Assembly: GCF_016907915.1 (NCBI RefSeq)
Contig: NZ_JAFBCW010000003.1
Coordinates: forward strand, 83,772-115,771
From: Desulforadius tongensis
Lineage (GTDB): Bacteria; Bacillota; Desulfotomaculia; Desulfotomaculales; Desulfohalotomaculaceae
Length of the DNA: 32,000 bases
Direction of reading: 5' to 3'
Part shown: positions 4,903 through 26,774 of the stretch, piece by piece
How positions within the stretch are numbered: position 1 is the stretch's first letter
How the letters are laid out: every line of letters begins with the position of its first letter
Notes under the pieces: generated by a model
Seen by the model: only the letters and a program-made list of their open reading frames with translations
Told to the model about the DNA's origin: nothing
The model's database searches: none
Translations under genes and position numbers: made by a program

Positions 4903-4980
4903 ATGAGCAGTTTGCTTTACCGCCATTGAATGATGAATGATTGCCGGCTCATTTGAGATAATACAAATGGAGGTGGTTTA

Positions 4981-5238
4981 ATGGAACTGGGAACGAACTG
5001 GCATAAATGGAAAGATGTTTTGGGAGAAGCGGTGCAAATAGGAGAAAAATTGGGCTTATCCCACGATAATATTGATGATATCGCTTACCGCTTGGGGCAG
5101 TTCCTGGCCAATAATTTAGACCCAGCCAATAAAGAACAGCGGCTGCTTAAAGAACTTTGGGAAAACGGTACCGAAGAAGAAAAACGCAGTCTGGCATCCA
5201 TGATGGCCAAAATGAGCAAAAGGGATTCTTTGCATTAA
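4981..5238 (+). CDS. DUF3243-family small protein (B. subtilis YmfJ-like)
   Basis: 85 aa. The pattern NWxKWKDxLG...DIAYxLGxFLAxxxxPxNxEQRLLKELW matches my recollection of the YmfJ/DUF3243 family. GGAGGTGG RBS. Confidence 0.55.
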   Translation: MELGTNWHKWKDVLGEAVQIGEKLGLSHDNIDDIAYRLGQFLANNLDPANKEQRLLKELWENGTEEEKRSLASMMAKMSKRDSLH

Positions 5239-13552: not shown

Positions 13553-13581
13553 TTGCCTAAAATATGGTTAATATGTATAAT
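13553..13581 (+). promoter_or_regulatory. Candidate sigma-A promoter for the pilus operon leader
   Basis: TTGCCT (13553-13558), a 17-nt spacer, then TATAAT (13576-13581) in an AT-rich intergenic region. It would give a leader of about 200 nt containing the riboswitch. Confidence 0.4.
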
Positions 13582-13645
13582 ATGGCTTGAGTAAGCGTAT
13601 ATTATTATAATACTGCTAATACTGCGTACTGAACTAAATAGCTTA

Positions 13646-13723
13646 AAAGGCAAACTTACCGAAAGGTAAGGACGCAAAGCCGCGGGCCTAAGGGTGGTAT
13701 CACCTATGGCAGCCGGTTGCCTT
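13646..13723 (+). promoter_or_regulatory. c-di-GMP-I (GEMM-I) riboswitch aptamer
   Basis: The sequence reads GGCAAAC, CTTACC-GAAA-GGTAAG, GACGCAAAGCC, GCGGG, CCTAAG, GGTGgtatCACC, TATGG, CAGCCGG, TTGCC. This matches the conserved core of the Vc2-type aptamer. It includes the GAAA tetraloop hairpin, the CCUAAG/UAUGG tetraloop receptor and a closing GGCAA/TTGCC P1 helix. Confidence 0.8.
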
Positions 13724-13729
13724 AGGAAT

Positions 13730-13773
13730 AAATCCAAAACCTAAGTATAATTTTAGCGTTTTGGATTTTTTTT
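13730..13773 (+). terminator. Intrinsic terminator forming the riboswitch expression platform
   Basis: AAATCCAAAAC (13730-13740) pairs with GTTTTGGATTT (13758-13768), with an extra CTAA/TTAG extension. Eight consecutive T lie at 13766-13773, and the pilB ATG is 17 nt downstream. Confidence 0.8.
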
Positions 13774-13790
13774 TCGCGGGAGTAGGGTAA

Positions 13791-15503
13791 ATGAATATGA
13801 AAATTAATTACAAAAAAAATTTTCTCGGTACCTGGTTAGTTAAAGAAGGTGTGGTTACCGAAGCCCAGCTGGAAGAAGCATTAAATAACCAGGCAGTGAA
13901 TAAAAACAACAGAGGATTGCTGGGCAAAACTCTGGTACAAATGGGCTACTGCTCTGAAGAAGATATTGCCAGGGTGATAGCAAAACGGGCCGGGGTTCCC
14001 TTTGTGTCGCTGGAAAACTATCCGGTGGACACCGCTGCCATGGCTCTCCTTTCACCGGAGATTATTAAACGATATAAGGCGCTGCCCATTGCCTTTAGTG
14101 ATGACGGCAGGCTGATTGTGGCCATGCAGCAGCCCACCGATATTATGGCCATTGATGATCTGCGTATTCTTACCGGATATGATATAACGGCGGTTTTTGC
14201 CACTGACAGTGAATTGGAGGCGGCCATAGAAAAATACAGCCTGGGCAAATTAGATTTTGAACAGGCCGGTGATGAACCGGCTGCGGAAGATGAACCTGCT
14301 CCGGAAAATGATATTTTTCCCGGCCGGCAGGAGTCAGAAGAAAGCCCGGCGGTGCAGCTGGCCAACATGATTATCTCCCAGGCGGTGGCCGCCCGGGCCA
14401 GTGACGTGCATATTGAGCCCTATGAAAATTACTGCCGGGTGCGCTTTAGAATTGACGGTGTGCTGCACGACATGATGCAGCCCCCGCGGCGCATGCATGC
14501 CCCGCTGGTTTCGCGGATAAAAGTGATGGCCAACATGGACATAGCAGATCGGAGAATTCCCCAGGACGGCCGGACAACACTGAAAATGGAAGGAAGAACC
14601 ATTGATATCCGGGTGGCGTCACTGCCCACAAGTTACGGTGAGCGATTAACGCTGCGTCTGCTGGATCGTGCCAATAAGATAATTACCCTGGAGGAACTGG
14701 GCGTTGCCCCCCAGGTGCTGGATAAATACCGCCAGGCGATCAATCTTCCCTACGGTTTTATACTGGTTACCGGTCCCACAGGCAGCGGGAAAAGCACCAC
14801 TTTATATGCCAGTCTGTCTGCTTTAGATAAGACGGAAAAAAATATTATCACTGTGGAAGATCCGGTGGAATACCGGATTGATGAAATAAACCAGGTTCAA
14901 ATTAACCCCAAGGCAGGGCTTACCTTTGCCTCCGGACTGCGTTCAATACTGCGCAACGACCCGGACATCATCATGGTGGGGGAAATTAGGGACCGGGAAA
15001 CGGCAAAGATAGCCGTTGAATCGGCTATGACCGGCCACCTGGTTTTTTCCACCCTGCATACCAATGATGCCGCAGGAACAATTACCCGACTGACAGAAAT
15101 GGGAATTGAACCTTTTCTAACGGCTTCGTCACTGGTTTGTGTGCTGGCCCAGCGGTTGGCCCGGGTTCTCTGCCCCAACTGCAAGAAACCTTATGAATTA
15201 ACCAGGGACCAGCTGCAGAACATACCGGATTTTCCTTTAAGCAGCGGGAAAGAGCCGGTGAAGATTTACCGCCCGGGCGGCTGTATGCGCTGCAGCTACA
15301 CCGGGTATCGCGGGCGCACCGGTATTTATGAATTGCTAATGGTAACGGAAAATATACAGCGTCTGATTTTAGAGCGCAAATCGTCTAAAGAAATTAAAAA
15401 AGCTGCTGTGGCCGAGGGAATGGTTACGCTGCGCCAGGACGGTTTAGAAAAGGTAAAGCAGGGCATTACTTCGCTGGAAGAAGTGATGAGGGTGGTATTG
15501 TGA
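13791..15503 (+). CDS. pilB: Type IV pilus assembly ATPase PilB (GspE family)
   Basis: Has a T2SSE N-terminal domain, Walker A GPTGSGKST, Asp/His boxes, and the tetracysteine Zn motif CPNC...CMRC typical of extension ATPases. Confidence 0.9.
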   Translation: MNMKINYKKNFLGTWLVKEGVVTEAQLEEALNNQAVNKNNRGLLGKTLVQMGYCSEEDIARVIAKRAGVPFVSLENYPVDTAAMALLSPEIIKRYKALPIAFSDDGRLIVAMQQPTDIMAIDDLRILTGYDITAVFATDSELEAAIEKYSLGKLDFEQAGDEPAAEDEPAPENDIFPGRQESEESPAVQLANMIISQAVAARASDVHIEPYENYCRVRFRIDGVLHDMMQPPRRMHAPLVSRIKVMANMDIADRRIPQDGRTTLKMEGRTIDIRVASLPTSYGERLTLRLLDRANKIITLEELGVAPQVLDKYRQAINLPYGFILVTGPTGSGKSTTLYASLSALDKTEKNIITVEDPVEYRIDEINQVQINPKAGLTFASGLRSILRNDPDIIMVGEIRDRETAKIAVESAMTGHLVFSTLHTNDAAGTITRLTEMGIEPFLTASSLVCVLAQRLARVLCPNCKKPYELTRDQLQNIPDFPLSSGKEPVKIYRPGGCMRCSYTGYRGRTGIYELLMVTENIQRLILERKSSKEIKKAAVAEGMVTLRQDGLEKVKQGITSLEEVMRVVL

Positions 15504-16582
15504 TGGGACAAAGAGTGCCTGATTTAAACGAAATTCTTATTCGAACCGTTAAAATGGATGGCTCTGACCTGCACCTGACCACCGGTTTACCCCCGGTGGT
15601 GCGGGTTTATGGTGAGCTGGTGCCAATGGATTTGCCCCGTTTAACCCCCCAGGACATAGAGGATTTAATCTATCCTGTACTCCAGCCCCACCAGCGGGAG
15701 CAGCTGGAAAAGGAACTGGAGCTGGACTTCTCATACTCCATTTCCGGTGTCAGCCGTTTTAGGGGCAATATTATGTGGCAGAGAGGTACACTGGCTGTAA
15801 ACTTCCGAACGGTGGCCATGAGCATTCCCAAACTGGCCGACCTGGGCCTGCCCAGGGCGGTGGGAAAGCTGAGTAATTTACCCCGGGGATTGGTGCTGGT
15901 CACCGGTCCCACCGGCAGCGGTAAGTCCACCACTTTGGCGGCCCTTATTGAACAAATTAACGAGCAGCGCAGATTGAATATAGTAACCATAGAAAATCCC
16001 ATAGAGTACCTGCACCGGCATAAAAAATCGATCATCAAACAGCGGGAAGTGGGTACCGATACCCATTCATTTGCCAATGCCCTGCGGCACGTGCTGCGCC
16101 ATGACCCGGATGTAATACTGATCGGGGAAATGAGGGATATAGAAAGCATTAGTATCGCCCTTACCGCTGCGGAAACCGGACACCTTGTCTTTTCTACCTT
16201 ACATACCCAAACCGCTTCCCTGGCGGTGCACAGAATAATAGACGTGTTTCCGGAGGGAATGCGGGACCAAATTCGCCAGCAGCTTGCTGATTCGCTGCAG
16301 GCTGTCATTGCCCAGCAGTTAATTCCCAGGGCTGACGGCAGGGGCAGGACTGCTGCCGTTGAGCTGCTGCTCAGCACCCCTGCTGTAAGAAATATCATCC
16401 GGGAAGGTAAGGAACACCAGTTGTACACAGTAATGCAGACCGGGCGCAATGTGGGCATGCAGACGCTGGATCAAGCCCTGGCCGAACTGTGTTTAAAAGG
16501 ATTGATTACCAAGGAAATGGCCCTAATGCGCTGTGTTGACCAGGCCGAATTGGAGCGCTCGCTGCGCAGATGTCAATTTTAA
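15500..16582 (+). CDS. pilT: Type IV pilus retraction ATPase PilT
   Basis: About 360 aa with Walker A GPTGSGKST and the PilT signature AVRNIIREGKEHQ. No N-terminal extension or Zn motif. Its start (GTG 15500 or ATG 15503) overlaps the pilB stop. Confidence 0.9.
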   Translation: MMGQRVPDLNEILIRTVKMDGSDLHLTTGLPPVVRVYGELVPMDLPRLTPQDIEDLIYPVLQPHQREQLEKELELDFSYSISGVSRFRGNIMWQRGTLAVNFRTVAMSIPKLADLGLPRAVGKLSNLPRGLVLVTGPTGSGKSTTLAALIEQINEQRRLNIVTIENPIEYLHRHKKSIIKQREVGTDTHSFANALRHVLRHDPDVILIGEMRDIESISIALTAAETGHLVFSTLHTQTASLAVHRIIDVFPEGMRDQIRQQLADSLQAVIAQQLIPRADGRGRTAAVELLLSTPAVRNIIREGKEHQLYTVMQTGRNVGMQTLDQALAELCLKGLITKEMALMRCVDQAELERSLRRCQF

Positions 16583-16588
16583 CCGGAA

Positions 16589-17812
16589 GTGAGGAAGATT
16601 ATCTTGCCCTTGTACGCTTACCAAGTGATGGACCGGACAGGAAGTGAGCTGACAGGTAAGTTAGAAGCCGAGCACCAGTGGTCAGCCGCTGCGCGGCTGC
16701 AAAAAATGGGTTACATCGTTCTGGATGTTGCGGAAGTTAAGGAATCTTCCTTTAAAAAAGCGTTTAGTTGGCGTAAAAAAGTAAGTATCGGTGACCTGTG
16801 TTTTTTCACCCGCCAGCTGGCGGCCATGCTCCGGGCGGGAATACCGCTGACGCGAAGCCTTTTTACTCTCAGTGAACAGGCCAAAAACCCTACACTGGCC
16901 GAAGCTGTGGCTGAAATTGCCCGCGGCGTGGAAGGGGGATTGAGTTTTTCCGAAGCGCTGCGCCCCTACTCGAATATTTTTTCTTCCTTGTATGTGGATA
17001 TGGTCAAGGCCGGTGAGATGGGCGGGGCATTGGATGAGATTTTAAGGCGTCTTTCAGAACAGCTGGAGCGGGAGAAAAGTTTACGGGACAGCATTCGCTC
17101 GGCAACCTTTTACCCGGCGGTTGTTTTAGTTTTTGCCACCGGGGTGATTTTAGCGCTGATGTTTTTCATTGTTCCCGTTTTTAGCAGCTTTTTCCCCCAG
17201 GGTACCAAACTGCCGCTGGTAACGGAAATTATCCTTGATTTGAGCCGGTCGTTGAGAAGTTTTTGGTATTTCTACTTACTGGGGCTGCTGCTGGCTGTAC
17301 TGGGCCTGCGGGTGTATGCGGCCAGTGAAAGCGGCCGGGAGAGATGGGAAAAAATTAAGTTTAAACTGCCGGTATTGGGCGACCTGTTTAAAAAAGCTGC
17401 CATAGCCCGTTTTTCCCGCATCCTGGCCACTCTTTTAAGCGGTGGTATTCCCGTACTGCAGGCGCTGGAAACGGCCGGCCCGGCATCCGGCAGCAGGCAG
17501 GTCAGTCAACTGGTAAAGGATGCCGGTGCGGGTATTCAGGAAGGGCAGAGTATAGTACGGCCCTTGGAAAGAAGCGGTTTTTTCCCACCCATGCTTACCA
17601 ACATGGTGGCGGTGGGAGAGGAAACGGGGGAACTTTCCACACTGCTGGCCCAGGTGGCGGACTTTTACGAAGAAGAAGTGGCCACCATGACTAAAGGGCT
17701 CACGGCGTTAATAGAACCAATTTTAATTATCTTTATTGGCCTTGTAATTGGCGGCATTGTGATTTCCATTTACTTACCGATATTCAATGTCGTTACCTCC
17801 GTTGGGGGGTAG
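16589..17812 (+). CDS. pilC: Type IV pilus platform protein PilC (GspF family)
   Basis: Two GspF repeats and three TM segments, with the typical YxYxAxDxxG N-terminus. The real start may be the TTG at 16604 (GAGGAAG 6 nt upstream). Confidence 0.9.
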   Translation: MRKIILPLYAYQVMDRTGSELTGKLEAEHQWSAAARLQKMGYIVLDVAEVKESSFKKAFSWRKKVSIGDLCFFTRQLAAMLRAGIPLTRSLFTLSEQAKNPTLAEAVAEIARGVEGGLSFSEALRPYSNIFSSLYVDMVKAGEMGGALDEILRRLSEQLEREKSLRDSIRSATFYPAVVLVFATGVILALMFFIVPVFSSFFPQGTKLPLVTEIILDLSRSLRSFWYFYLLGLLLAVLGLRVYAASESGRERWEKIKFKLPVLGDLFKKAAIARFSRILATLLSGGIPVLQALETAGPASGSRQVSQLVKDAGAGIQEGQSIVRPLERSGFFPPMLTNMVAVGEETGELSTLLAQVADFYEEEVATMTKGLTALIEPILIIFIGLVIGGIVISIYLPIFNVVTSVGG

Positions 17813-17845
17813 TCAAAAGACCTCGCAAGGAAGTGATAAGCTGTA

Positions 17846-18886
17846 ATGGGGTTATTTAAATCATCCACCGCTGTGGGTCTGGAGCTGGACACCGGTGTTA
17901 TCCGGGTTGTTCAGCTGAAGGGTACGCCCCAAAATGCCGTCCTTGCGGCGGTGGAACAGATAGAAATCCCGGAAGAAGCGGTGGTTGAAGGGGTGGTGGC
18001 TGACGGCAGCGCGGTGGCCGGTGCTTTGGAAAAGCTGTGGGTAAAAGCGGGTATTAGAAAACGTGATGTGGTGCTGGGTATTTCCAACCAGGGCGTATTG
18101 ATGCGAATGGCCGCACTTCCCAGCATTCCGGAAGAAAAGCTGGCCCAGGCTATGCGCTTTCAGGCCGAAGAATATTTTCCCATTCCCATTTCTGAAATGG
18201 TATTGGACTTTTCGGTGGTGGGCCGGTGGGATGGCGAGAACGGTCCGGAAATGGAAGTGCTGCTGGTGGCCGCCCGGCGGGATATACTGGACAAAAGTAT
18301 TAATGCTTTAAAACTTGGCGGTTTAAACCCGGAAATTATCGATGCTTCTCCCCTGGCCCTGATGCGTGTTTTACCGGAAGAAAAACTTACCGGCACGGTG
18401 GTTTTGGTGGACATTGCCAACGGTTTGAGCACCCTGCTGCTGGTTGATAATGGTGTGCCGCGCTTTTCCCGGGTGCTGTCCCGTTCTGTGCAATCTTACG
18501 CTGAGAAAAATAATGTTCGGCTTGCGGAATTTTTTACACTGCCCGGTGCAGCCGCTGCGGCGGAAGGAAAAGAGGATATCGGCAGCGGCGGTATTCCGGC
18601 GGAGTGGGGAATTGCCTTGGCCGGTGAGATTAGGGTATCCATCAGCTATTATTTGACCCAGACTAAAAGCGGTTCGGTGGATTATATATATTTAAGCGGC
18701 AGCGGTACCCGGGTGAAAGGACTGCCCGGGCTTTTGCAGCGGGAGTTGGATGTGCCGGTGGAAGTGATCCAGCCGTCAGCCAAACTGAAAAAAATAACCG
18801 GGGTCCCAGGGACAGACATAGAAAAAGAGGGGCCGGACTTTGCTGTCAGTGTTGGTTTGGCCCTGCGGGGATTGGGGGAACCCTAA
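17846..18886 (+). CDS. pilM: Type IV pilus assembly protein PilM (actin-like ATPase fold)
   Basis: N-terminal VGLELDTGVIRVVQL, IDASPLAL and SGSG motifs. Typical size and position upstream of pilN. Confidence 0.85.
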   Translation: MGLFKSSTAVGLELDTGVIRVVQLKGTPQNAVLAAVEQIEIPEEAVVEGVVADGSAVAGALEKLWVKAGIRKRDVVLGISNQGVLMRMAALPSIPEEKLAQAMRFQAEEYFPIPISEMVLDFSVVGRWDGENGPEMEVLLVAARRDILDKSINALKLGGLNPEIIDASPLALMRVLPEEKLTGTVVLVDIANGLSTLLLVDNGVPRFSRVLSRSVQSYAEKNNVRLAEFFTLPGAAAAAEGKEDIGSGGIPAEWGIALAGEIRVSISYYLTQTKSGSVDYIYLSGSGTRVKGLPGLLQRELDVPVEVIQPSAKLKKITGVPGTDIEKEGPDFAVSVGLALRGLGEP

Positions 18887-18889
18887 GCA

Positions 18890-19501
18890 ATGGAAATTAG
18901 AATTAATTTATTACCTCCAGAGTTAAAAGCCCGGCAGAAAAAAATACGCCGGCAGCGGCTGCTGCTGGCAGCCGGTGGTGCTGCTTTAGTATTTCTTCTC
19001 ACTGTCTACAGCATACTGCTCACCGCCACTTTCCAGGCCAGGGCCGAGGTTGTAAAGCTGCGGGCAGAGAGAGAGGCCTGGGAGAAAAGGGTTCAAACCT
19101 ATGAACCGTATGCTCAGCTGCAGGCCCGGGCAGAGAAGGCAGACCGGTTGATAAGCCGGGCCGAGGCTGGGCATCCCCACTGGGTACAGCTGCTGTATGA
19201 TATCGGCCTGCACATTCCCCCCTATGTTTGGCTCACCGATTTAAATGCCAGTTATAAAGCGGATAAAAATTCCGGCCGGTTATCCCAGGGTGAAATTGTA
19301 CTGAAGGGTTTTACCCTGGATCACGTTTCAGTGGCCCGCTGGCTGGAAGAACTGGGCCGGGTGCCGGGGTTGAAAAATGTTCGCTGCCAGTTTTCTTCCC
19401 AGGAAAATGCTGACCGGCAGGCACTGGTCCAGTATGAAATCAAAGCTGAACTGCTGCCCGGCAGAAACCGGCAGGATACAGCGAAAAGGGCGGGAGAATA
19501 A
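18890..19501 (+). CDS. pilN: Type IV pilus assembly protein PilN
   Basis: The conserved N-terminal INLLP motif that binds PilM, then a single TM helix and a coiled coil. Confidence 0.75.
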   Translation: MEIRINLLPPELKARQKKIRRQRLLLAAGGAALVFLLTVYSILLTATFQARAEVVKLRAEREAWEKRVQTYEPYAQLQARAEKADRLISRAEAGHPHWVQLLYDIGLHIPPYVWLTDLNASYKADKNSGRLSQGEIVLKGFTLDHVSVARWLEELGRVPGLKNVRCQFSSQENADRQALVQYEIKAELLPGRNRQDTAKRAGE

Positions 19502-19504
19502 GGG

Positions 19505-20038
19505 ATGGTACGGGAAAAAAGGTCTGGTTTTTGGATTATAATCTTGGGTGCTGTTTTACTGGCCCTGGTATTATTTTTGGTGTATAACCAGCTGGGGGCT
19601 TTAAATGCAGCCCGGGAGGCCGCTGCCAAAGAGCGGGCAGCCATTGTGGATGTTCAGCGTCGTTTACAGCAGCTGACAACGGTTAAAAAGCGGGCCCAGG
19701 ATTTAAACCAGCAGTTAAAGCGCTGTAACCGGCTGCTGCCGCCGGAACCTAACGAGGCGGAACTGATTAATGACATAAAGAACTATGCTTACAGGTCTAA
19801 TGTACATTTTATTCAAATTCGTTTTCAAAAGTATGTACCTAAACAGGGTTATGTGGAGATGCCCTTTAAAATGGTGCTGGAGGGAGAATATCACCAGCTG
19901 CTGAATCTGCTGCAGTACCTGCAGGATGGCCCGCGCCTGGTGCGCATAGATGAAGTGAAGATCGGCAAAGGCAGGGAAGAACTGCCGGTGGTTAGAGTTG
20001 ATATTTCCGGCAGTGCCTTCTATGCGGGCGGACAGTAA
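19505..20038 (+). CDS. pilO: Type IV pilus assembly protein PilO
   Basis: N-terminal TM helix and coiled coil, then a ferredoxin-like C-terminus with the PilO-typical pattern LPPEPNEAELINDI...YVEMPFKMVLEGEYHQLLNLLQYL...RLVRIDEVKI. Confidence 0.7.
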   Translation: MVREKRSGFWIIILGAVLLALVLFLVYNQLGALNAAREAAAKERAAIVDVQRRLQQLTTVKKRAQDLNQQLKRCNRLLPPEPNEAELINDIKNYAYRSNVHFIQIRFQKYVPKQGYVEMPFKMVLEGEYHQLLNLLQYLQDGPRLVRIDEVKIGKGREELPVVRVDISGSAFYAGGQ

Positions 20039-20175
20039 GTACCGTTTCCTGGTTAAAAAAGGGTGAAAAACCCCATCTATTGGCAGGAACGAGCATTTTT
20101 TCGGTGTACTGCAAAAACCACCGGCTTGGCAGGATAGCTATGGTAATTAATAACGGTTAACCGGCAAAGGGAGGG

Positions 20176-20760
20176 GTGGCCGTGATTAATGAAAAGCAGA
20201 AAATTAAAGATATACTGACCAAAGAAATCAAATTTAGCGACATAGTTAAATACATTAAGAAAAATAAAATAAAAACCGCTGCAGCCGGTGTCCTGGCAGC
20301 GGTTTTGGCCGGAGTAATTTTTCTGGTACAGGTAAAACCGGGTTTTTGGAGTGATGCTGCCGGCCAAAGTGAGGATACACTGGCGCTGATCCAAAATGGG
20401 GAAATTAATGGGGAAATTAATAAAGAGGAAAATAGCTATACATATTTACCGGAAACCCAAAGAGAAATTGAAGACTTCTCCAGGGCAAGAGATCCCTTTG
20501 CCGGAACAATGGAACTGCAGGGGGTCGTTACCGGCGGCAGGGGAAAGAACATAGCTATTATCAGGGTGGGCAGCAAATCCTTTGTGGCCGGTGAGGGAAC
20601 CCAAATAGCAGGTAATTTAACGGTGCAGGAAGTGAGAAACAGTACGGTAATTTTGAGTTCCCCGGGTGAAAAAATATACCTGGAACTGGGCGGAAAAATG
20701 AAATTGGAAAAAATAAAGCCGGATAAAAAAGATGTAAAAGAAACGGGGGATGAGAAGTGA
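20176..20760 (+). CDS. PilP-like membrane-anchored protein (RDPF motif plus beta-sandwich-like C-terminus)
   Basis: One TM helix and an acidic linker, then RDPFAGTMELQGVVTGGRGKNIAIIRVGSKSFVAGEGTQIAGNLTVQEVRNSTVIL. This resembles the PilP/GspC-HR pattern (R/N-PF...L.G.....A.i......v..G..i......V..I....V.L). The start is probably the GTG at 20182. Confidence 0.45.
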   Translation: MAVINEKQKIKDILTKEIKFSDIVKYIKKNKIKTAAAGVLAAVLAGVIFLVQVKPGFWSDAAGQSEDTLALIQNGEINGEINKEENSYTYLPETQREIEDFSRARDPFAGTMELQGVVTGGRGKNIAIIRVGSKSFVAGEGTQIAGNLTVQEVRNSTVILSSPGEKIYLELGGKMKLEKIKPDKKDVKETGDEK

Positions 20761-21830
20761 TGGTTACAGGCAGCACCGTTGGTTTTTTCAGGCATATTAT
20801 AAAAGCATCCCCGGGAACGCTTATTACGGCAGTACTGCTGGCAGGAATACTGGCTTTAACGGTGGGAATTGATAGGGCGCCAGCAGGGCAGGCGGAAAGG
20901 GCTGCTAACGCCCCTTCGTTACTAGATACAGTTTTTGCCGAAACGGGGAATACAATTACCCTGAACGTACGGGAAGCCTACCTGCAGGATGTGCTGTCCG
21001 CCCTGGCCATTAAAATGGGGGCAAACATTGTGCTGCTGGACAGCAAACCGGTGAAAGTTACATTTAAGGTGGAAAATGTATCCCCCCGGCGGGCCATGGA
21101 ATTGATTATTCAAAGCAGCGGTCTTTCCTACCTGCAGAGCGGCAGTGTTATTATCATCGGCCCAGCGGATAAACTGCAGCAGAATTTCTTCAACCACATG
21201 GCTTTAACCAGGTTTGACACCCGGTATATAGAAAGTGACGAAATTCAGAATATGATTAATAAACTGGGGATTAAGGGGGTTAAAACCATCATTAAAGATG
21301 ACAACCCCCACGCCATTTGGGTGCAGGGCACGGCACAGGCGCTGGATAAAGTGAGGGAACTTATTTCTGCGGTGGATATAGAAAAGGAACCTTTTGAAGA
21401 AAAACAATCCCGGTTTTTCTACACCCTGGAATACACGGCGGCCGGTGAGGCGGCAGAAAAATTAAAACAGTTCGGCTTTGGGGATAATGTAAAGGCGATA
21501 ATCGGTGAGGGGGATAAATTTGGCAGAGAATTACTGGTACTCTGCCCTAAGGATATTGAAGGCCAGGTGATGAGTGCCCTGGATGCCATCGACATGCCGG
21601 TGAAAAAGACCCGGGTTCCGCTGCTGACGGAACGGGGGGAGAACGCCCATCAAAGGCTCAATGCCACCCGCCACCTGCTTAGTGAGTTGAGCGGCGTGCC
21701 GGTGGGCAGCTTGCACATTTCCAGAAATCTGGGCAGCAGAGATAATCCCCTCTATGTGCTTTGGGTGGAAGAAACGCCGGATAAATCTCAACTGCTTAAA
21801 AACTTGGTGGATGAGATGGATTTGAACTAA
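20757..21830 (+). CDS. Secretin N-domain-only protein (N0/STN-like plus repeated Secretin_N/ring-building-motif-like domains, no secretin beta-barrel)
   Basis: Signal anchor, then ITLNVREAYLQDVLSALAIKMGANIVLLDSKPVKVTFKVENVSPRRAMELIIQSSGLSY...VIIIG (STN/N0-like). Next comes LTRFDTRYIESDEIQNMINKLG...KTIIKDDNPHAIWVQGTAQALDKVRELISAVD (Secretin_N-like) and two more alpha/beta repeats. The protein ends at 357 aa. Its start overlaps the upstream stop. Confidence 0.5.
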   Translation: MMVTGSTVGFFRHIIKASPGTLITAVLLAGILALTVGIDRAPAGQAERAANAPSLLDTVFAETGNTITLNVREAYLQDVLSALAIKMGANIVLLDSKPVKVTFKVENVSPRRAMELIIQSSGLSYLQSGSVIIIGPADKLQQNFFNHMALTRFDTRYIESDEIQNMINKLGIKGVKTIIKDDNPHAIWVQGTAQALDKVRELISAVDIEKEPFEEKQSRFFYTLEYTAAGEAAEKLKQFGFGDNVKAIIGEGDKFGRELLVLCPKDIEGQVMSALDAIDMPVKKTRVPLLTERGENAHQRLNATRHLLSELSGVPVGSLHISRNLGSRDNPLYVLWVEETPDKSQLLKNLVDEMDLN

Positions 21831-21907
21831 ATTAAATTAGTTAACTAACATATAACATTAACAGGAAAAGTTTTTTGTTAAGACAGCTGATGAAAGGAGG
21901 TGAAACA

Positions 21908-22324
21908 ATGTTTGACAGAATTTGCCGCAGTTTAAAAAACCGCCGGGGTTTCACTCTTGTGGAACTGATGGTGGTGGTGGCGATAATCGGTATCCTGGTG
22001 GGTATTGCAGTGCCGCTGTTCAATAAGTCGACAAGTTCGGCCGAAAAGAAGGCCTGCCATGCCAACCAGCGGATAATAGAAGGTGCCGCCATGCAGTATT
22101 ATGCTGAGAAAAATACATGGCCCAGTGACGTTGAGGCACTGGTAAATGAGGGGTACTTACAGGAGGAACCTAAGTGTCCCTTAAGTAAAAGTGGTTATAC
22201 AATTAATGATAAGGGCAAAGTAACTGGTGTTAAACCACCAGGCAGCGGCGGTACACAGTGCAACCACGGGTATTACGCCAATGATGGCGGCCAGTTCCCG
22301 GGTTCAGGCAGCAGCAGTCCATAA
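21908..22324 (+). CDS. pilA: Type IV major pilin (prepilin with class III signal peptide)
   Basis: AAGGAGG RBS 8 nt before the ATG at 21908. Leader MFDRICRSLKNRRG, then cleavage-site sequence FTLVELMVVVAIIGILVGIAVPLF with Glu at +5. Three Cys in the globular part. A hairpin follows the gene. Confidence 0.85.
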   Translation: MFDRICRSLKNRRGFTLVELMVVVAIIGILVGIAVPLFNKSTSSAEKKACHANQRIIEGAAMQYYAEKNTWPSDVEALVNEGYLQEEPKCPLSKSGYTINDKGKVTGVKPPGSGGTQCNHGYYANDGGQFPGSGSSSP

Positions 22325-22375
22325 CAGTGGTAACAACGGTAATAACAGCTAAGTGCCGGGTATTTTAATGTTAAG

Positions 22376-22406
22376 GGGAGTATTTTTGTATAAGTACTCC
22401 CTTTAA
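22376..22406 (+). terminator. Weak hairpin after pilA (possible attenuator between major and minor pilin genes)
   Basis: GGGAGTA (22376-22382) pairs with TACTCCC (22395-22401), followed by TTTAAT. The U tract is poor. Confidence 0.35.
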
Positions 22407-22515
22407 TGCTACCCTGAAAAATGGTATCCTGCTGAGTCCGCCTGCTTTTCATTCTCTGATGGTGTCATTACGGCAGTTTTCACTTTTTAGTTAATCGGTA
22501 AAGGGGAGCTCCCAA

Positions 22516-24021
22516 ATGCTGCAGATGTTTGATTATAGGAATAAAAGCCGCCGGGGTTTTACTTTAATAGAAGTTTTAATTTCCCTTACAATACTGCTTA
22601 TCGTGGCGCTGGCATTGGTGCCCCTGTTTTCCTTTGTGGCCCGGTCCACCCAGGCCAACAGGGCCCGTTTGGTGGCCATGGAACTGGCGGCCGGCAGAAT
22701 GGAAGAAATAAGACAAGCGGATTACATTACTCAAATTGGAGAAGTTGGGGGTACTCCGGTGGGAATTTTTCCCTCCACCGAAACCAGAACCATCGGCGGC
22801 ATTGAGTACACCATTAATACGGAAATTGTGTGGAAGGATGACCCCAGTGACGGCACCGGTGACGGTGATGTCGTTCCTTTTGATTACAAGGGAATACGGG
22901 TTACTGTTTCTGCTCCCGGTGTCTTTAATGGGAAAGTGACGCAGTATGCTGATTTTAATTCCCTGGCGGCAAAGGAAGAGGGAGAATCCATTATACCTGT
23001 CCTCAAAGTGCGGGTAAACCGCGGGTGGGTGGATACCCCGGGCGTTACCGTACCGGTGGAAGGGGTGCGCACTACCCTGCTGACCGGTCCGGGAGCACCG
23101 CGCAGCCAGTTTACCGGTGCAAACGGGGAAAGTATCTATGATATAAATTTATCCGGCAGTGATTACGGTACAGTAACAGTTAAAGTGACCCCTCCCCTGG
23201 GAATGATAGTCCGCCCGGACATGGCTGGCGGACAGAGTGTAGCGGTGGCCAAAGGCACAACTTCAACCGCCGTTTTTGAAGTTGAGCGGCCCTGCGCGCT
23301 GGAATTTTATTCTGACAGCACCGGCAGGATGATATTGAAGCAGCCCTACGGCGGCGACATTACCCAGGAAGTGCAGGAAGGGAATAATAAAGTTGAAAAT
23401 TTATGGCCGGTGGGTGACGGGGCAGAGGGTACTTATAAATTGACAATTATTGATGAGGCCTATGTTCAGAATTTTGATGGCCCCGGCAGCTATACCGTTG
23501 AAAAAGAGATTGGGTGGGGGGGTAACCCTTCGTGGGAATTTGGAGAGCCCACCACTGGTCCCCGTGGTGCGCATACCGGCTCCGGTGTTTGGGCCACTAA
23601 TCTTAACGGTAATTATAAACCCGGGGAAAGAAGCTGCCTGGTATCGCCGGAAATAGACCTAAGGGGCTTTGCGGGTGCAGATTTTAAATTGAGCTGGTGG
23701 CAGTGGCTGCAGACGGAAGAAGGGTATGACTATGTGTATGTGGATGTAAATAAAAACGGCGGAGATGAAAATGACTGGGTTACCGTATATAAAGAATCCG
23801 GAGATGTGGATTTAAAATGGGCGGAGAAAGAGATTACTTTGGATTCCTCCTATGCCGTAAAAAATTTCAAGGTGCGGTTTCGGTTTCAGTCTGATGGCAG
23901 TATACAGTTTCCCGGCTGGTATATTGATGACATAGCTATTTACCGTGAAAGGGAGCATGATTGGGATGGTAAGTTTAAAGCTCCCGGCACAACGGTGGAT
24001 CCCTTTAATGTAACTGAATAG
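22516..24021 (+). CDS. Large PilV-like minor pilin fused to a C-terminal jelly-roll (MAM/InhA-like) putative binding domain
   Basis: Prepilin motif KSRRG/FTLIEVLISL. The C-terminal 170 aa or so show the pattern GPRGAHTGSGVWATN...CLVSPEIDL...FKLSWWQW...YDYVYVDV...WV...KWAEKEITL...FKVRFRFQSDGSIQFPGWYIDDIAI. That pattern is typical of MAM-like/M6-InhA accessory beta-sandwich domains. Confidence 0.7.
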   Translation: MLQMFDYRNKSRRGFTLIEVLISLTILLIVALALVPLFSFVARSTQANRARLVAMELAAGRMEEIRQADYITQIGEVGGTPVGIFPSTETRTIGGIEYTINTEIVWKDDPSDGTGDGDVVPFDYKGIRVTVSAPGVFNGKVTQYADFNSLAAKEEGESIIPVLKVRVNRGWVDTPGVTVPVEGVRTTLLTGPGAPRSQFTGANGESIYDINLSGSDYGTVTVKVTPPLGMIVRPDMAGGQSVAVAKGTTSTAVFEVERPCALEFYSDSTGRMILKQPYGGDITQEVQEGNNKVENLWPVGDGAEGTYKLTIIDEAYVQNFDGPGSYTVEKEIGWGGNPSWEFGEPTTGPRGAHTGSGVWATNLNGNYKPGERSCLVSPEIDLRGFAGADFKLSWWQWLQTEEGYDYVYVDVNKNGGDENDWVTVYKESGDVDLKWAEKEITLDSSYAVKNFKVRFRFQSDGSIQFPGWYIDDIAIYREREHDWDGKFKAPGTTVDPFNVTE

Positions 24022-24054
24022 TTTACAGAGCATAATTCCCCATATTTTAAAAGG

Positions 24055-24636
24055 GTGGTTAATGTGGTGAAAAGAAAGATAGAGATAATAAAATCTCTTT
24101 TTTCCAGCGAGAAAGGTTTTTCTTTGGTTGAGCTGATGATGGCCCTGGCTTTAATGGGCCTGGCCCTGGCCGGAATATACAATATCTTTTTCTTTGCCCA
24201 CAGCAGTTTTAATCACGCCCGGTTAGAAAATCAGGTGCTGCAGGAAGTAAATTTATTTTTAACAACCATCGGGGCGGAAATAAACTCTGCCCAAAGGCCA
24301 AATGACAGTACAGAAGCTGTTGCGGTTAATGGGAACGGGATAGATATATACCGTGTAAATAAATTTACAAATAACTGGGAACGGATTCAATATCGTATTG
24401 CCCATGGAAAGCTGCAGCGCAGGAGTGCTGAACTTTCGGAAGAACTGGGCACCTGGCAGACAGTGGTAAGCGGGGTAGATAACACCGGTATTTTTCAAGT
24501 TTCCCCTGTGCCAAATTTTGAAGATTGCCGCCGGGTGAGCATTAATTTAAAGGTAAGCGGTGCGCCCACTCCCTTGAATAAACCGCTGGAAATCAGTACG
24601 GTTTTTATATCCCGCAGCAGGGGGGGAGAGGAATGA
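24055..24636 (+). CDS. PilW-like minor pilin (prepilin-type N-terminal cleavage/methylation domain)
   Basis: Carries SSEKG/FSLVELMMALALMGLALAGIY. About 190 aa. The start codon is uncertain (GTG 24055 or 24064). Confidence 0.65.
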   Translation: MVNVVKRKIEIIKSLFSSEKGFSLVELMMALALMGLALAGIYNIFFFAHSSFNHARLENQVLQEVNLFLTTIGAEINSAQRPNDSTEAVAVNGNGIDIYRVNKFTNNWERIQYRIAHGKLQRRSAELSEELGTWQTVVSGVDNTGIFQVSPVPNFEDCRRVSINLKVSGAPTPLNKPLEISTVFISRSRGGEE

Positions 24637-24685
24637 CGCTGCATTATGTGAACTTTGCTGAAGCGTAGTTATCGGGAGGGTAACT

Positions 24686-26326
24686 ATGAAGAACTTTTTT
24701 AATAATGAAAAGGGAATAGTTCTGCCCATTGTGGTGGTGATAATTGCCATTGTTACCGTGCTGGGCTTTTCGGCGGTATTTGTGGTAAACAGTGAAACAA
24801 ATATGATTAAACGCAGTGCCGGTGCCCGGGATGCCATTTACTATGCCGAAGCGGGAGTGCATAAATATCTATGGCATTTGAATAAAGATTCTACCTTTTA
24901 TCAAACAGGTACCGGAACGGGGCTGGTGCCGGTGGAATTTTATCCCAACGGATACCCCAGGAAATACCAGCCCACTGCATATGAAGATGGCTTTTATCAA
25001 TTAATTATTGAACCACCTCAATATATTGAGGATTCTGCCGAAACAGAACCCTTTTTAACCATTATTTCCACCGGCTGGACAAAGAGCAGCCCGGCCGACA
25101 GGCGCACCATTAAAGTTAAGGTGCAAAAGCGTAAGTTTACCCAGTACGGCATGGTTACCAATAATGAAATAAATGAATATGGCGAGCGCTTGTATTGGGT
25201 TAGCGGAGAGAAATTTTACGGTCCGCTGCACAGCAATGACATTCTTTATATTTCAGGCCGCCCTACCTTTTACGGCCCGGTTACCTATACCGGGGGAATA
25301 GATGGTGCGGATAAAGACAATAAAAATATTTTTAAGCAGGGAGCCGCGCAGGCCGACCCCTTAACCTTTCCGCCCGGCAACAGTGATTTAAAGGCCTGGG
25401 CCACAAGCCCCGGCGGTCATTATTATAACGGCCGCACCTGTATTATGTTAAGGGGGGATAAATATGATGTTCGCACCTATGATAGAGATTCCGGTCAATG
25501 GAAGTATAACGGCGTACCGTACCGGTATAAAGCGGGTAAATATATAAACGAACTGACTAATGAAAGTTATAATAATTTTTCCGATTTTGCTGCCGCCTGT
25601 CCTTCTTTAGATCTGCCGGAAAATGGAGTTATTTATGTTGATGGTGAAACATACGATCAGCGGCACGCGGATAATCATCCATTTACTTATTGCTGGCGGC
25701 CGGAGTACGGCAATGTTTTTATTTCCGGAAAATTACAGGGGCAGCTGACCGTTGTGGCGGCAAATGATTTATTTATCACCGGGTACAACCCCACTGACTG
25801 GCGGAACCCGAGATACAGCAGCCTTGAGCGTACAGAAGGGGTTACCTATGAAAAAACAAGTTTTACCCAGGTTATGGATGATTCCGGTTGGTTGCGCACA
25901 AGGGTTCATGTGGACGCCGGCTATAACGGTGTAGATATGCTGGGATTGGTGGCGGGCTTTAAGATACGGATACTGCATTATAACTGGCCTGCTCAAAAAG
26001 ATCCCTTTTATTGGGGATCCCGCTGGATACCAATTGACGTGGCCCCCTATAACATTACCATTCATGCCGCTTTGTATGTTCCCCATTCTTCCTATGGTTT
26101 TCAATATGCTGAAATGGGTAAAAGAAAGGGAACGATTACTCTGGTGGGGTCAATTACCCAAAAATACCGGGGTTTTGTGGGCAGCACGGGGTTAATAGGT
26201 GGTACGGGATATAAAAAAGTTTATTCACACGACCCCCGGATGAAATTTGACAGTCCTCCCCATTTTACCGACCCGGCCAATTCCGGCTGGAGGAGTATTT
26301 CTTGGCAGGAAGTTGCCCCGCCGTAG
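24686..26326 (+). CDS. Large PilX-N-domain protein (pilus-associated, 546 aa)
   Basis: The N-terminus NNEKGIVLPIVVVIIAIVTVLGFSAVFVVNSETNMIKRSAGARDAIYYAEAGV matches the PilX N-terminal pattern (a hydrophobic helix without Glu5, then AxxxAEAG). I do not recognise the rest, which is rich in Gly, Tyr and Asn. Confidence 0.55.
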   Translation: MKNFFNNEKGIVLPIVVVIIAIVTVLGFSAVFVVNSETNMIKRSAGARDAIYYAEAGVHKYLWHLNKDSTFYQTGTGTGLVPVEFYPNGYPRKYQPTAYEDGFYQLIIEPPQYIEDSAETEPFLTIISTGWTKSSPADRRTIKVKVQKRKFTQYGMVTNNEINEYGERLYWVSGEKFYGPLHSNDILYISGRPTFYGPVTYTGGIDGADKDNKNIFKQGAAQADPLTFPPGNSDLKAWATSPGGHYYNGRTCIMLRGDKYDVRTYDRDSGQWKYNGVPYRYKAGKYINELTNESYNNFSDFAAACPSLDLPENGVIYVDGETYDQRHADNHPFTYCWRPEYGNVFISGKLQGQLTVVAANDLFITGYNPTDWRNPRYSSLERTEGVTYEKTSFTQVMDDSGWLRTRVHVDAGYNGVDMLGLVAGFKIRILHYNWPAQKDPFYWGSRWIPIDVAPYNITIHAALYVPHSSYGFQYAEMGKRKGTITLVGSITQKYRGFVGSTGLIGGTGYKKVYSHDPRMKFDSPPHFTDPANSGWRSISWQEVAPP

Positions 26327-26366
26327 ATAAAGGAGTGCGTTAAAGCTGTACTCCTTTATTTATTTA
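26327..26366 (+). terminator. Terminator at the end of the pilus locus
   Basis: ATAAAGGAGT (26327-26336) pairs with ACTCCTTTAT (26350-26359), followed by TTATTTA. Confidence 0.55.
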
Positions 26367-26450
26367 CCGTAATATTTTTCAGGGAAGTTTCCGGCATAAA
26401 AAATCCCTGTTTTAATAACATGGTATAAAAGGTTAGTGGGAGGGGATTGG

Positions 26451-26774
26451 ATGACCTTTGAACAAAAAATGGTCATCATTTTTTTTACCGCCCTGGGGGT
26501 TGTATTGGGAGCGTCAATAATAGGCTCTGCCTCCGCCGTTTTTGTACGCCAGCCGCCTGCCACCACCATGGTTAGACTGGCCGGTGAAATAAAAATTTGG
26601 GCCATTGTGGCAGCCATAGGCGGCACCTTCACTGCCATTGAAGTGCTGGAATCCGGAATTTTTGCAGGCGAAATCCGGGCCGTTTTAAAACAATTTTTGT
26701 ATGTAATCAGCGGTTTTGCCGGAGCACAGGTGGGTTACTTTTTAATACTGTACTTGGCGGGGGGCAAAAATTGA
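26451..26774 (+). CDS. ytrH: Sporulation membrane protein YtrH-like
   Basis: About 107 aa. The core LAGEIKIWAIVAAIGGTFTAIEVLESGI...GAQVGY matches my recollection of B. subtilis YtrH. ATG at 26451 with GGGAGGGG upstream. Confidence 0.65.
   Translation: MTFEQKMVIIFFTALGVVLGASIIGSASAVFVRQPPATTMVRLAGEIKIWAIVAAIGGTFTAIEVLESGIFAGEIRAVLKQFLYVISGFAGAQVGYFLILYLAGGKN

Follow-up and report, generated by a model that had tools for sequence, protein, structure and literature searches.

The leader of the pilB gene in Desulforadius tongensis, which precedes a cluster of type IV pilus genes, is very probably a transcription attenuator that responds to cyclic di-GMP (c-di-GMP). It lies in a stretch of 32,000 nucleotides (nt) of contig NZ_JAFBCW010000003.1, here referred to as the window, to which all positions refer. 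The leader combines a class I (GEMM-I) c-di-GMP aptamer with an intrinsic terminator, has no canonical closing helix P1, and carries two complementary hexamers, element B (CUUAGG) and element C (CCUAAG), that are invariant among seven related leaders (Table 1). As to the direction of the switch, the evidence leans towards an ON switch, i.e., one in which c-di-GMP would promote read-through into pilB (probability about 0.45), with the opposite direction as its chief rival. The arguments on both sides come from sequence comparison and from folding models, and they are set out below.

Aptamer and terminator in the pilB leader

An Rfam cmscan of the whole window at the gathering threshold gave a single match, to RF01051 (c-di-GMP-I/GEMM-I), and to no other family. 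The alignment covers model positions 1-87 of 87 and scores 86.3 bits (gathering threshold 35; E 5.8e-16), which bears out the GEMM-I identity put forward in an earlier sequence-only reading of this DNA; the aptamer motifs listed there were all found again at their positions when the sequence was re-read. The hallmarks of GEMM-I are all present, namely, two hairpins, the conserved AAA joint, and a GNRA tetraloop with its matching receptor, and the aptamer region also contains the hairpin GGTG-GTAT-CACC. In the RF01051 alignment, the ligand-contacting residues G20, A47 and C92 of the Vc2 aptamer of Vibrio cholerae are matched by G13649, A13676 and C13720, the equivalent of C93 is C13721, and the core pairs are G13650-C13675 and C13651-G13674. 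RNAalifold recovered 21 pairs from 14 related pilus-locus aptamers, 14 of them with compensatory double changes. The aptamer is placed in the predicted 5' untranslated region, with a promoter-like site upstream and the first pilB ATG (13791) 67 nt downstream. Judged by its sequence, the element is a member of the c-di-GMP-I aptamer family, and it would be expected to bind c-di-GMP.

A related ligand has to be considered here, since GEMM-Ib aptamers, which sense 3',3'-cyclic GMP-AMP (cGAMP), are nearly indistinguishable from c-di-GMP aptamers by overall fold, and the riboswitch that controls the pilus gene pilM in Geobacter is of that type. In Vc2, the ligand is contacted by G20 and C92, and cGAMP-type aptamers carry A at the G20 position. 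The window has G at this position (G13649), as in Vc2, and therefore belongs with the c-di-GMP type; the same holds for 18/18 aptamers from the pilus loci studied here. That the leader senses cGAMP is thus very improbable.

The leader segment UGCGU (13624-13628) is complementary to ACGCA in the aptamer core (13672-13676), and the minimum-energy folds computed for the growing transcript pair the two with each other. This complementarity may be a chance match; it is the reason why the window differs from its orthologs in the modelling described below.

Behind the aptamer, the terminator hairpin proposed in the sequence-only reading was recovered by RNAfold as a stem of 16 bp (13730-13745/13752-13768, with C13757 bulged and a loop at 13746-51; -15.1 kcal/mol) with a run of nine U residues, and it is supported by compensatory changes in orthologs. 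The U-run, which spans 13766-13774, is indeed close to the start of pilB; it ends 16 nt before the first ATG, not 17 nt as had been counted, and 22 nt before the deposited start. The two in-frame ATG codons are 6 nt apart (13791 and 13797), and the deposited D. tongensis protein (568 aa), to which PilB is 100% identical, uses the second. A consensus terminator scanner missed the hairpin at 13730-13768 and returned only a minus-strand artefact that is the GAAA hairpin of the aptamer itself. The miss is presumably explained by the bulge, as the uninterrupted 11-bp stem leaves a loop of 17 nt, which is over the limit of the scanner. On the strength of covariation, the predicted intrinsic terminator is considered real, and transcript release is predicted. 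Upstream, a sigma-70-like promoter was recognised by consensus match only (10/12), with transcription inferred to start near 13588-13590; the leader of the closest relative, L001, has TTGATA-17-TATAAT at the equivalent position.

A P1-less subgroup with two invariant hexamers

To place the leader among its relatives, pilB loci were collected from reference genomes, from metagenomes, and by exact-protein look-ups of the closest PilB relatives; the metagenome scan with PilB yielded a single close relative, L081. Most relatives at 68-78% PilB identity have a GEMM-I aptamer upstream of pilB. Seven leaders share the platform of the window (here called window-type), i.e., the window, L001, L002 (Desulforamulus putei), L163, L168, L170 and L171. 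Their signature is GCCUUAGG-N8-25-CCUAAGU after the GEMM-I core, and their platforms were compared in a regex-anchored table.

The first common property of these leaders concerns P1. In Vc2, G14 is part of the closing helix and gives a nuclear Overhauser effect to the ligand guanine opposite C92, and P1 is needed for tight binding. We infer that G14 and C93 form the top pair of P1 in Vc2, that the five nucleotides between G14 and G20 are unpaired, and that position 5 pairs with position 84 of the Rfam model; P1 itself is not part of the RF01051 consensus structure. The G14-equivalent in the window is U13643, and no contiguous canonical P1 pairs follow. Across the window-type leaders this residue is U or A in 7/7, versus G in 11/11 other GEMM-I aptamers from the same pilus loci, and a canonical P1 is impossible in all seven. 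Among the other aptamers, a helix from the G14-equivalent can start in 8/11, namely, those with a correctly anchored 3' tail (all but L162, L165 and L028). CTTAGG, which had been read as overlapping the 3' strand of P1, is therefore not the 3' strand of a canonical P1; this hexamer and its complement CCTAAG were correctly located. The lack of P1 is no bar to family membership, because Cd1 of Clostridioides difficile, an accepted member, is also without it, and by sequence the window leader is a P1-less GEMM-I variant like Cd1.

What the window-type leaders have instead is element C. CCUAAG stands 19-23 nt after C93 in 7/7 of them and in 0/11 of the other aptamers. C13721, the C93-equivalent, is able to pair with G13745, the last base of C; the partner of C93 is G in every canonical relative, and in the window type the sole conserved G on offer is this last base of C. 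The strings GCC-UUAGG, which contains B, and CCUAAG-U, which contains C, are identical in all seven leaders, including U13746, which follows C and lies opposite C92. By comparison, the flanks of B and C have a mean pairwise identity of 56-65% (56% for the spacer of 13-17 nt, 62% for the region after C). B and C together can form a helix of 6 bp with an energy of -4.0 kcal/mol, as against -15.1 kcal/mol for the window terminator.

Element C is also part of the terminator 5' arm. The terminator stems, with energies from -10.6 to -15.6 kcal/mol in the seven leaders, come in three versions: CCAAAAC/GUUUUGG; CCAUGAC/GUUAUGG, which differs by a compensatory change in one pair and by a switch from A-U to G-U in another; and ACGAAACC/GGUUUCGU, which is in a shifted register and places UAAG of C in the terminator loop (L170). 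C stays constant in L170, and its constancy is not accounted for by the terminator; it is explained most simply if C pairs with B.

Two other partners for B were tried and rejected. An "anti-aptamer" helix of 7 bp with the aptamer receptor CCUAAGG (13687-93) had a probability of 0.0 whatever the length of the transcript, and L163 and L170 have an altered receptor but an unchanged B. A manually drawn P1 (CUUAA 13642-46 with UUAGG 13722-26) is off the canonical G14-C93 register and had a probability of about 0 in the bound-state proxy introduced below; it was kept only as part of the OFF alternative.

Direction of the switch

The mechanism favoured here is as follows. The transcript from about 13588 would fold into the aptamer, after which c-di-GMP would govern the choice between a stop at the terminator and read-through to pilB. 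Pairing of B with C would trap the rest of the terminator 5' arm in a loop of 13 nt, and the helix would thereby act as an antiterminator. Without ligand, B would be tied up in a helix that zips across the empty pocket, or else B:C would be too weak in competition with the terminator, and transcription would stop. Upon binding, c-di-GMP would take G20 and C92, the zipped helix would open, and B would then pair with C right beneath the ligand-C92 pair, where canonical GEMM-I aptamers have G14-C93 and P1, so that RNA polymerase would read through. It is tentatively proposed that B:C may be a transposed, ligand-stabilised P1, with its partner strand located downstream in the terminator 5' arm and doubling as an antiterminator.

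Folding models support this ON mechanism in most of the leaders. The bound state was approximated by enforcing the native junction and blocking G20, A47 and C92. Under this proxy, the probability of B:C was 0.94-0.98 in 6/7 leaders, versus 0.00-0.37 in the free ensemble, in which the helix across the empty pocket kept B of these six leaders occupied. Under the proxy, the probability that UUAGG pairs with the 5' flank was 0.00-0.03 in all seven. In energy (-4.0 kcal/mol), B:C has, by these models, the strength of a ligand-dependent P1 and not of a default antiterminator. Moreover, B:C is predicted never to invade the pocket, because C93 is the last residue of the helix and a U faces C92 in 7/7. 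Bc2 sets a precedent, in a Firmicute, for a class I switch that works with a terminator and is ON, and the two pilus-gene riboswitches for cyclic dinucleotides that have been studied by experiment are both ON, namely, Geobacter pilM (cGAMP) and C. difficile pilA1 (c-di-GMP class II).

Several observations weigh against this mechanism, and some of them directly favour an OFF switch. The window itself behaves in the opposite way, with a B:C probability of 0.85 in the free ensemble versus 0.57 under the bound proxy, and its free ensemble holds B:C at 0.65-0.85 from the transcription of C until most of the terminator 3' arm is available. Cd1 is an OFF switch and the one P1-less GEMM-I for which there are detailed studies; in it, pairing of the tail from the C93-equivalent antagonises ligand binding: the dissociation constant (K_D) goes from 0.25 uM (88 nt) to 0.6 uM (135 nt) and 7 uM (146 nt) as the tail pairs, and at 148 nt no binding is seen. 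The class I switches of C. difficile are uniformly OFF. With B and C both invariant, there is no covariation available to prove that they pair, and the seven leaders are related by descent, corresponding to about six independent lineages. Lastly, the nearest-neighbour models used leave out tertiary contacts and ligand stacking.

The OFF alternative, which the sequence-only reading had preferred while flagging it as weak, is a quite plausible one. In it, as in Cd1, B:C would form without ligand and allow read-through, and the c-di-GMP-bound pocket would capture GCC, so that B:C would be lost, the terminator would fold, and the operon would be shut; the weak shifted 5' helix mentioned above may form together with the ligand. 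As in Cd1, aptamer and terminator occupy separate stretches of the leader and can be formed at the same time, and most leaders contain short 5' complements to UUAGG. These candidate 5' partners are in differing registers, however, with none in L163; no canonical P1 is possible, and the bound-proxy values for pairing with the 5' flank are close to zero throughout. The Cd1 antiterminator reaches into the pocket, whereas B:C never reaches C92 or G91, with the invariant U opposite C92. A hairpin of -4 kcal/mol would also be a poor default antiterminator against terminators of -11 to -15 kcal/mol, and the orthologous leaders of a second type, described next, are predicted ON designs. On balance, the OFF polarity is possible but not favoured by the bound-proxy modelling, by the energy of B:C relative to the terminator, and by the ON-type platforms of orthologs.

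Platform turnover among orthologous leaders

A second type of platform, found about 70-190 nt upstream of pilB, is shared by L162, L165, L166 (Peptococcaceae BRH_c8a), L167 and L169. These leaders have a canonical P1 (ACCUG/CAGGU), confirmed separately for L162 and L165, whose 3' strand is common to the 5' arm of the terminator (AGGUGCGG/CCGCACCU). When the pocket and the G14-C93 pair were enforced, the P1 of 5 bp stripped the base of the terminator stem and detached the stem from the U-run. By this modelling, the platform of L162, L165, L166 and L169 is a classical ON design. If the favoured ON mechanism of the window type is true, orthologous pilB leaders would reach the same logic by two unrelated platforms, one in which a canonical P1 overlaps the terminator and one in which a downstream P1 loops out a terminator arm.

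The other leaders are more scattered. L160 and L081 have singleton platforms, and L161 (around 1040-1130) and L164 (around 1050-1120) have kept a terminator with a decayed aptamer: just the 3' half of the aptamer is left, the hairpin with its U-run is still there, and both appear to be decayed riboswitches. In L001, the closest relative, about 110 extra nucleotides (2886-2996) separate the riboswitch terminator from pilB and contain TGATATAAT, which resembles an extended -10 element; a second promoter that bypasses the riboswitch is possible there. The more distant Syntrophomonadaceae loci have their GEMM-I aptamer downstream of pilB, between it and a pilin-like gene, at 4937-5028 (L028), 2479-2570 (L029), around 2493-2580 (L096) and around 2789-2875 (L092). 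The aptamers of L028 and L029 are about 190-200 nt upstream of the pilin-like gene and have a canonical P1, with no terminator directly after. Outside pilus loci, a search of 0.92 Mb gave no further instances of the window-type signature in other gene contexts, and the GEMM core was absent in all six viral-contig matches to it.

The decayed leaders L161 and L164, which lost the 5' half of the aptamer yet keep the terminator, raise the question whether the window leader, too, no longer switches in spite of an intact aptamer, and is a constitutive attenuator or leaky stop, or acts via RNA stability or translation. The possible bypass promoter of L001 fits such a scenario, as does the modest thermodynamic support for alternative folds, which is inconsistent between leaders. 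We consider it unlikely, as the aptamer of the window scores like the best members of the family with every ligand-contact position intact, and as the invariance of B and C in seven leaders with diverged flanks implies selection on the platform.

Comparison with known riboswitches

The first description of GEMM, in 2007, already tied it to pilus genes (pilM, pilO, pilQ, pulF), and both ON and OFF platforms are documented. The literature collection that was searched gave no description of the D. tongensis pilB leader or of the genus Desulforadius. The closest counterpart is Cd1 (Cdi-1-3, upstream of flgB in C. difficile), which is likewise a Firmicute class I aptamer with a GAAA tetraloop and receptor, with U in place of G14 and no canonical P1 that could be detected, with a GCC tail, with a terminator that does not overlap the aptamer, and with an antiterminator built from the tail beside the pocket. 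It differs in that its antiterminator is 9 bp long (G86-G94 with C140-C148, as reconstructed here from the Cd1 sequence) versus 6 bp in the window, that its tail finds its partners in the terminator loop and the adjoining bases of the two arms instead of in the 5' arm, and that its antiterminator invades the pocket (G147-C87, C148-G86), while the helix of the window stops at the C93-equivalent. Furthermore, Cd1 controls flagella and is proven to be OFF, whereas the window leader precedes pilus genes. Between aptamer and terminator, Cd1 nt 98-120 (PMC9262584 supplement) form a hairpin, CCUAGGUGUA-UUG-UAUACCUAAG, whose arms resemble B and C of the window; this likeness may reflect common ancestry of the platforms.

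Two systems share the pilus context. The pilM riboswitch of the deltaproteobacterium Geobacter metallireducens (GEMM-Ib) also uses the GEMM-I fold and transcription termination ahead of type IV pilus assembly genes, but it senses cGAMP, with A at the G20 position and a ligand-dependent P1, and it is clearly built as an ON switch, since the terminator overlaps with the aptamer and ties up the C that would pair with the ligand. Cdi-2-4 (c-di-GMP-II, upstream of C. difficile pilA1) responds to c-di-GMP and governs the read-through into a type IV pilus operon of a Firmicute, with pilB among its genes; it differs in having a class II aptamer, a proven ON direction, and a pilin gene instead of pilB as the first gene. 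Vc2, upstream of tfoY, has G20, A47, C92, the GAAA tetraloop and the CCUAAG/UAUGG receptor in common with the window, but it has a canonical P1 (G14-C93) and its control is described as translational, while the window has no G14 and relies on a terminator. In Bacillus thuringiensis, Bc2 stands upstream of cap; like the window, it is a Firmicute class I aptamer with a terminator close behind, and it is experimentally ON. Its G20 position is occupied by A, the gene downstream codes for a collagen adhesin, and its likeness to the window rests on the description, not on the platform sequence.

PilB and the pilus gene cluster

The PilB protein may constitute a second c-di-GMP input. Its residues 12-65 match NF053729, the NCBIfam model of an MshE-related c-di-GMP-binding domain, with 55.1 bits (cutoff 38). 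The published MshEN double motif consists of tandem 24-residue motifs, RLGxx[LVI][LVI]xxG[LVI][LVI]xxxxLxxxLxxQ, with a linker of 5 residues. PilB residues 11-65 (window 13821-13985) read FLGTWLVKEGVVTEAQLEEALNNQ, 8 residues, and LLGKTLVQMGYCSEEDIARVIAKR; in place of the initial Arg, the two half-motifs have F11 and L43, and the linker has 8 residues instead of 5, while the rest fits. Binding of c-di-GMP by PilB is plausible but uncertain, and it has little weight for the polarity of the leader.

The gene upstream of the leader is aroB. Downstream, 12 co-directional genes with short gaps form the cluster, in the order pilB-pilT-pilC-pilM-pilN-pilO, a GspC-like gene, a secretin-N-domain gene, the gene for the major pilin, and three more, of which two encode proteins with a prepilin N-terminus and one a protein of 546 aa. 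No convincing internal terminator was found on the plus strand of the cluster (15 candidates on both strands versus 18.6 expected from shuffles). The gating of the whole operon suggested in the sequence-only reading is plausible for this run of genes, but there may be internal promoters, and a hairpin stands just after the major pilin gene. This hairpin, GGGAGUA...UACUCCC at about 22376-22406, has a poor U-tract with a UUU tail only, and could be a partial terminator, or else a stabiliser that raises the pilin transcript relative to the downstream genes.

Within the cluster, the 357-aa protein encoded at 20757-21830 has STN and Secretin_N domains and no C-terminal secretin (pore) domain. The 501-aa protein encoded at 22516-24021 combines a prepilin N-terminal methylation motif with an InhA-like MAM domain; it is unusually large for a pilin-like protein and is possibly a tip adhesin. 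The sporulation gene ytrH lies at 26436-26774, and the host is a Peptococcaceae species.

Table 1. Features of the pilB leader and the pilus gene cluster of D. tongensis, with positions in the window.
Feature	Position	Strand	Basis
Sigma-70-like promoter, TTGCCT-17-TATAAT	13553-13581	+	Consensus match only, 10/12
c-di-GMP-I (GEMM-I) aptamer	13639-13724	+	RF01051 full-length alignment, RNAalifold covariation
Aptamer, GGCAAAC	13649-55	+	Sequence
Aptamer stem, CTTACC-GAAA-GGTAAG	13655-70 (arms 13655-60/13665-70)	+	Sequence
Aptamer, GAAA tetraloop	13661-64	+	Sequence, RF01051 alignment
Aptamer segment, GACGCAAAGCC	13671-81	+	Sequence
Aptamer, AAA joining the two hairpins	13676-78	+	Sequence, RF01051 alignment
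Aptamer, second stem	13678-13718	+	Contains the receptor
Tetraloop receptor, CCUAAG / UAUGG	13687-92 / 13705-09	+	Sequence, RF01051 alignment
Aptamer, TTGCC	13717-21	+	Sequence
Element B, CUUAGG; 3' tail from the C93-equivalent, proposed switching strand	13721-13726	+	Invariance
Intrinsic terminator (predicted)	13730-13774	+	RNAfold hairpin 13730-13768 and U9 run 13766-13774
Element C, CCUAAG; complementary to B, within the terminator 5' arm	13740-13745	+	Invariance
Ribosome-binding region GGGAG and first pilB ATG	13778-82, ATG 13791	+	Sequence
pilB, type IV pilus assembly ATPase	13791-15503	+	T2SSE 480 bits, MshEN; TIGR02538 643 bits
Rest of the co-directional pilus cluster	15500-26326	+	Open reading frames and domain matches
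Major pilin, 149 aa	21875-22324	+	Open reading frame
Terminator-like hairpin AUAAAGGAGU...ACUCCUUUAU, then UUAUUUA, closing the cluster	26327-26366	+	Read from the sequence

Biological meaning

With this leader, a further member joins a known kind of riboswitch, and the identification as such will not surprise a specialist. Less ordinary, at the level of sequence, are the P1-less subgroup with two invariant complementary hexamers that abut the pocket, and the turnover of platforms among orthologous pilB leaders that have kept the same aptamer. It is also out of the ordinary that the RNA and the PilB protein may both be responsive to c-di-GMP. For the mechanics of riboswitches, these natural variants bear on whether a helix with a downstream strand can replace P1, and on whether the response to c-di-GMP has been retained or reversed from one orthologous operon to the next. 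For the biology of this deep-sea, spore-forming sulfate reducer and its relatives, the leader suggests that type IV pilus production would be under direct c-di-GMP control at the RNA level, maybe on top of binding by PilB, which would extend the link between c-di-GMP and pili that is already known from Geobacter and C. difficile.

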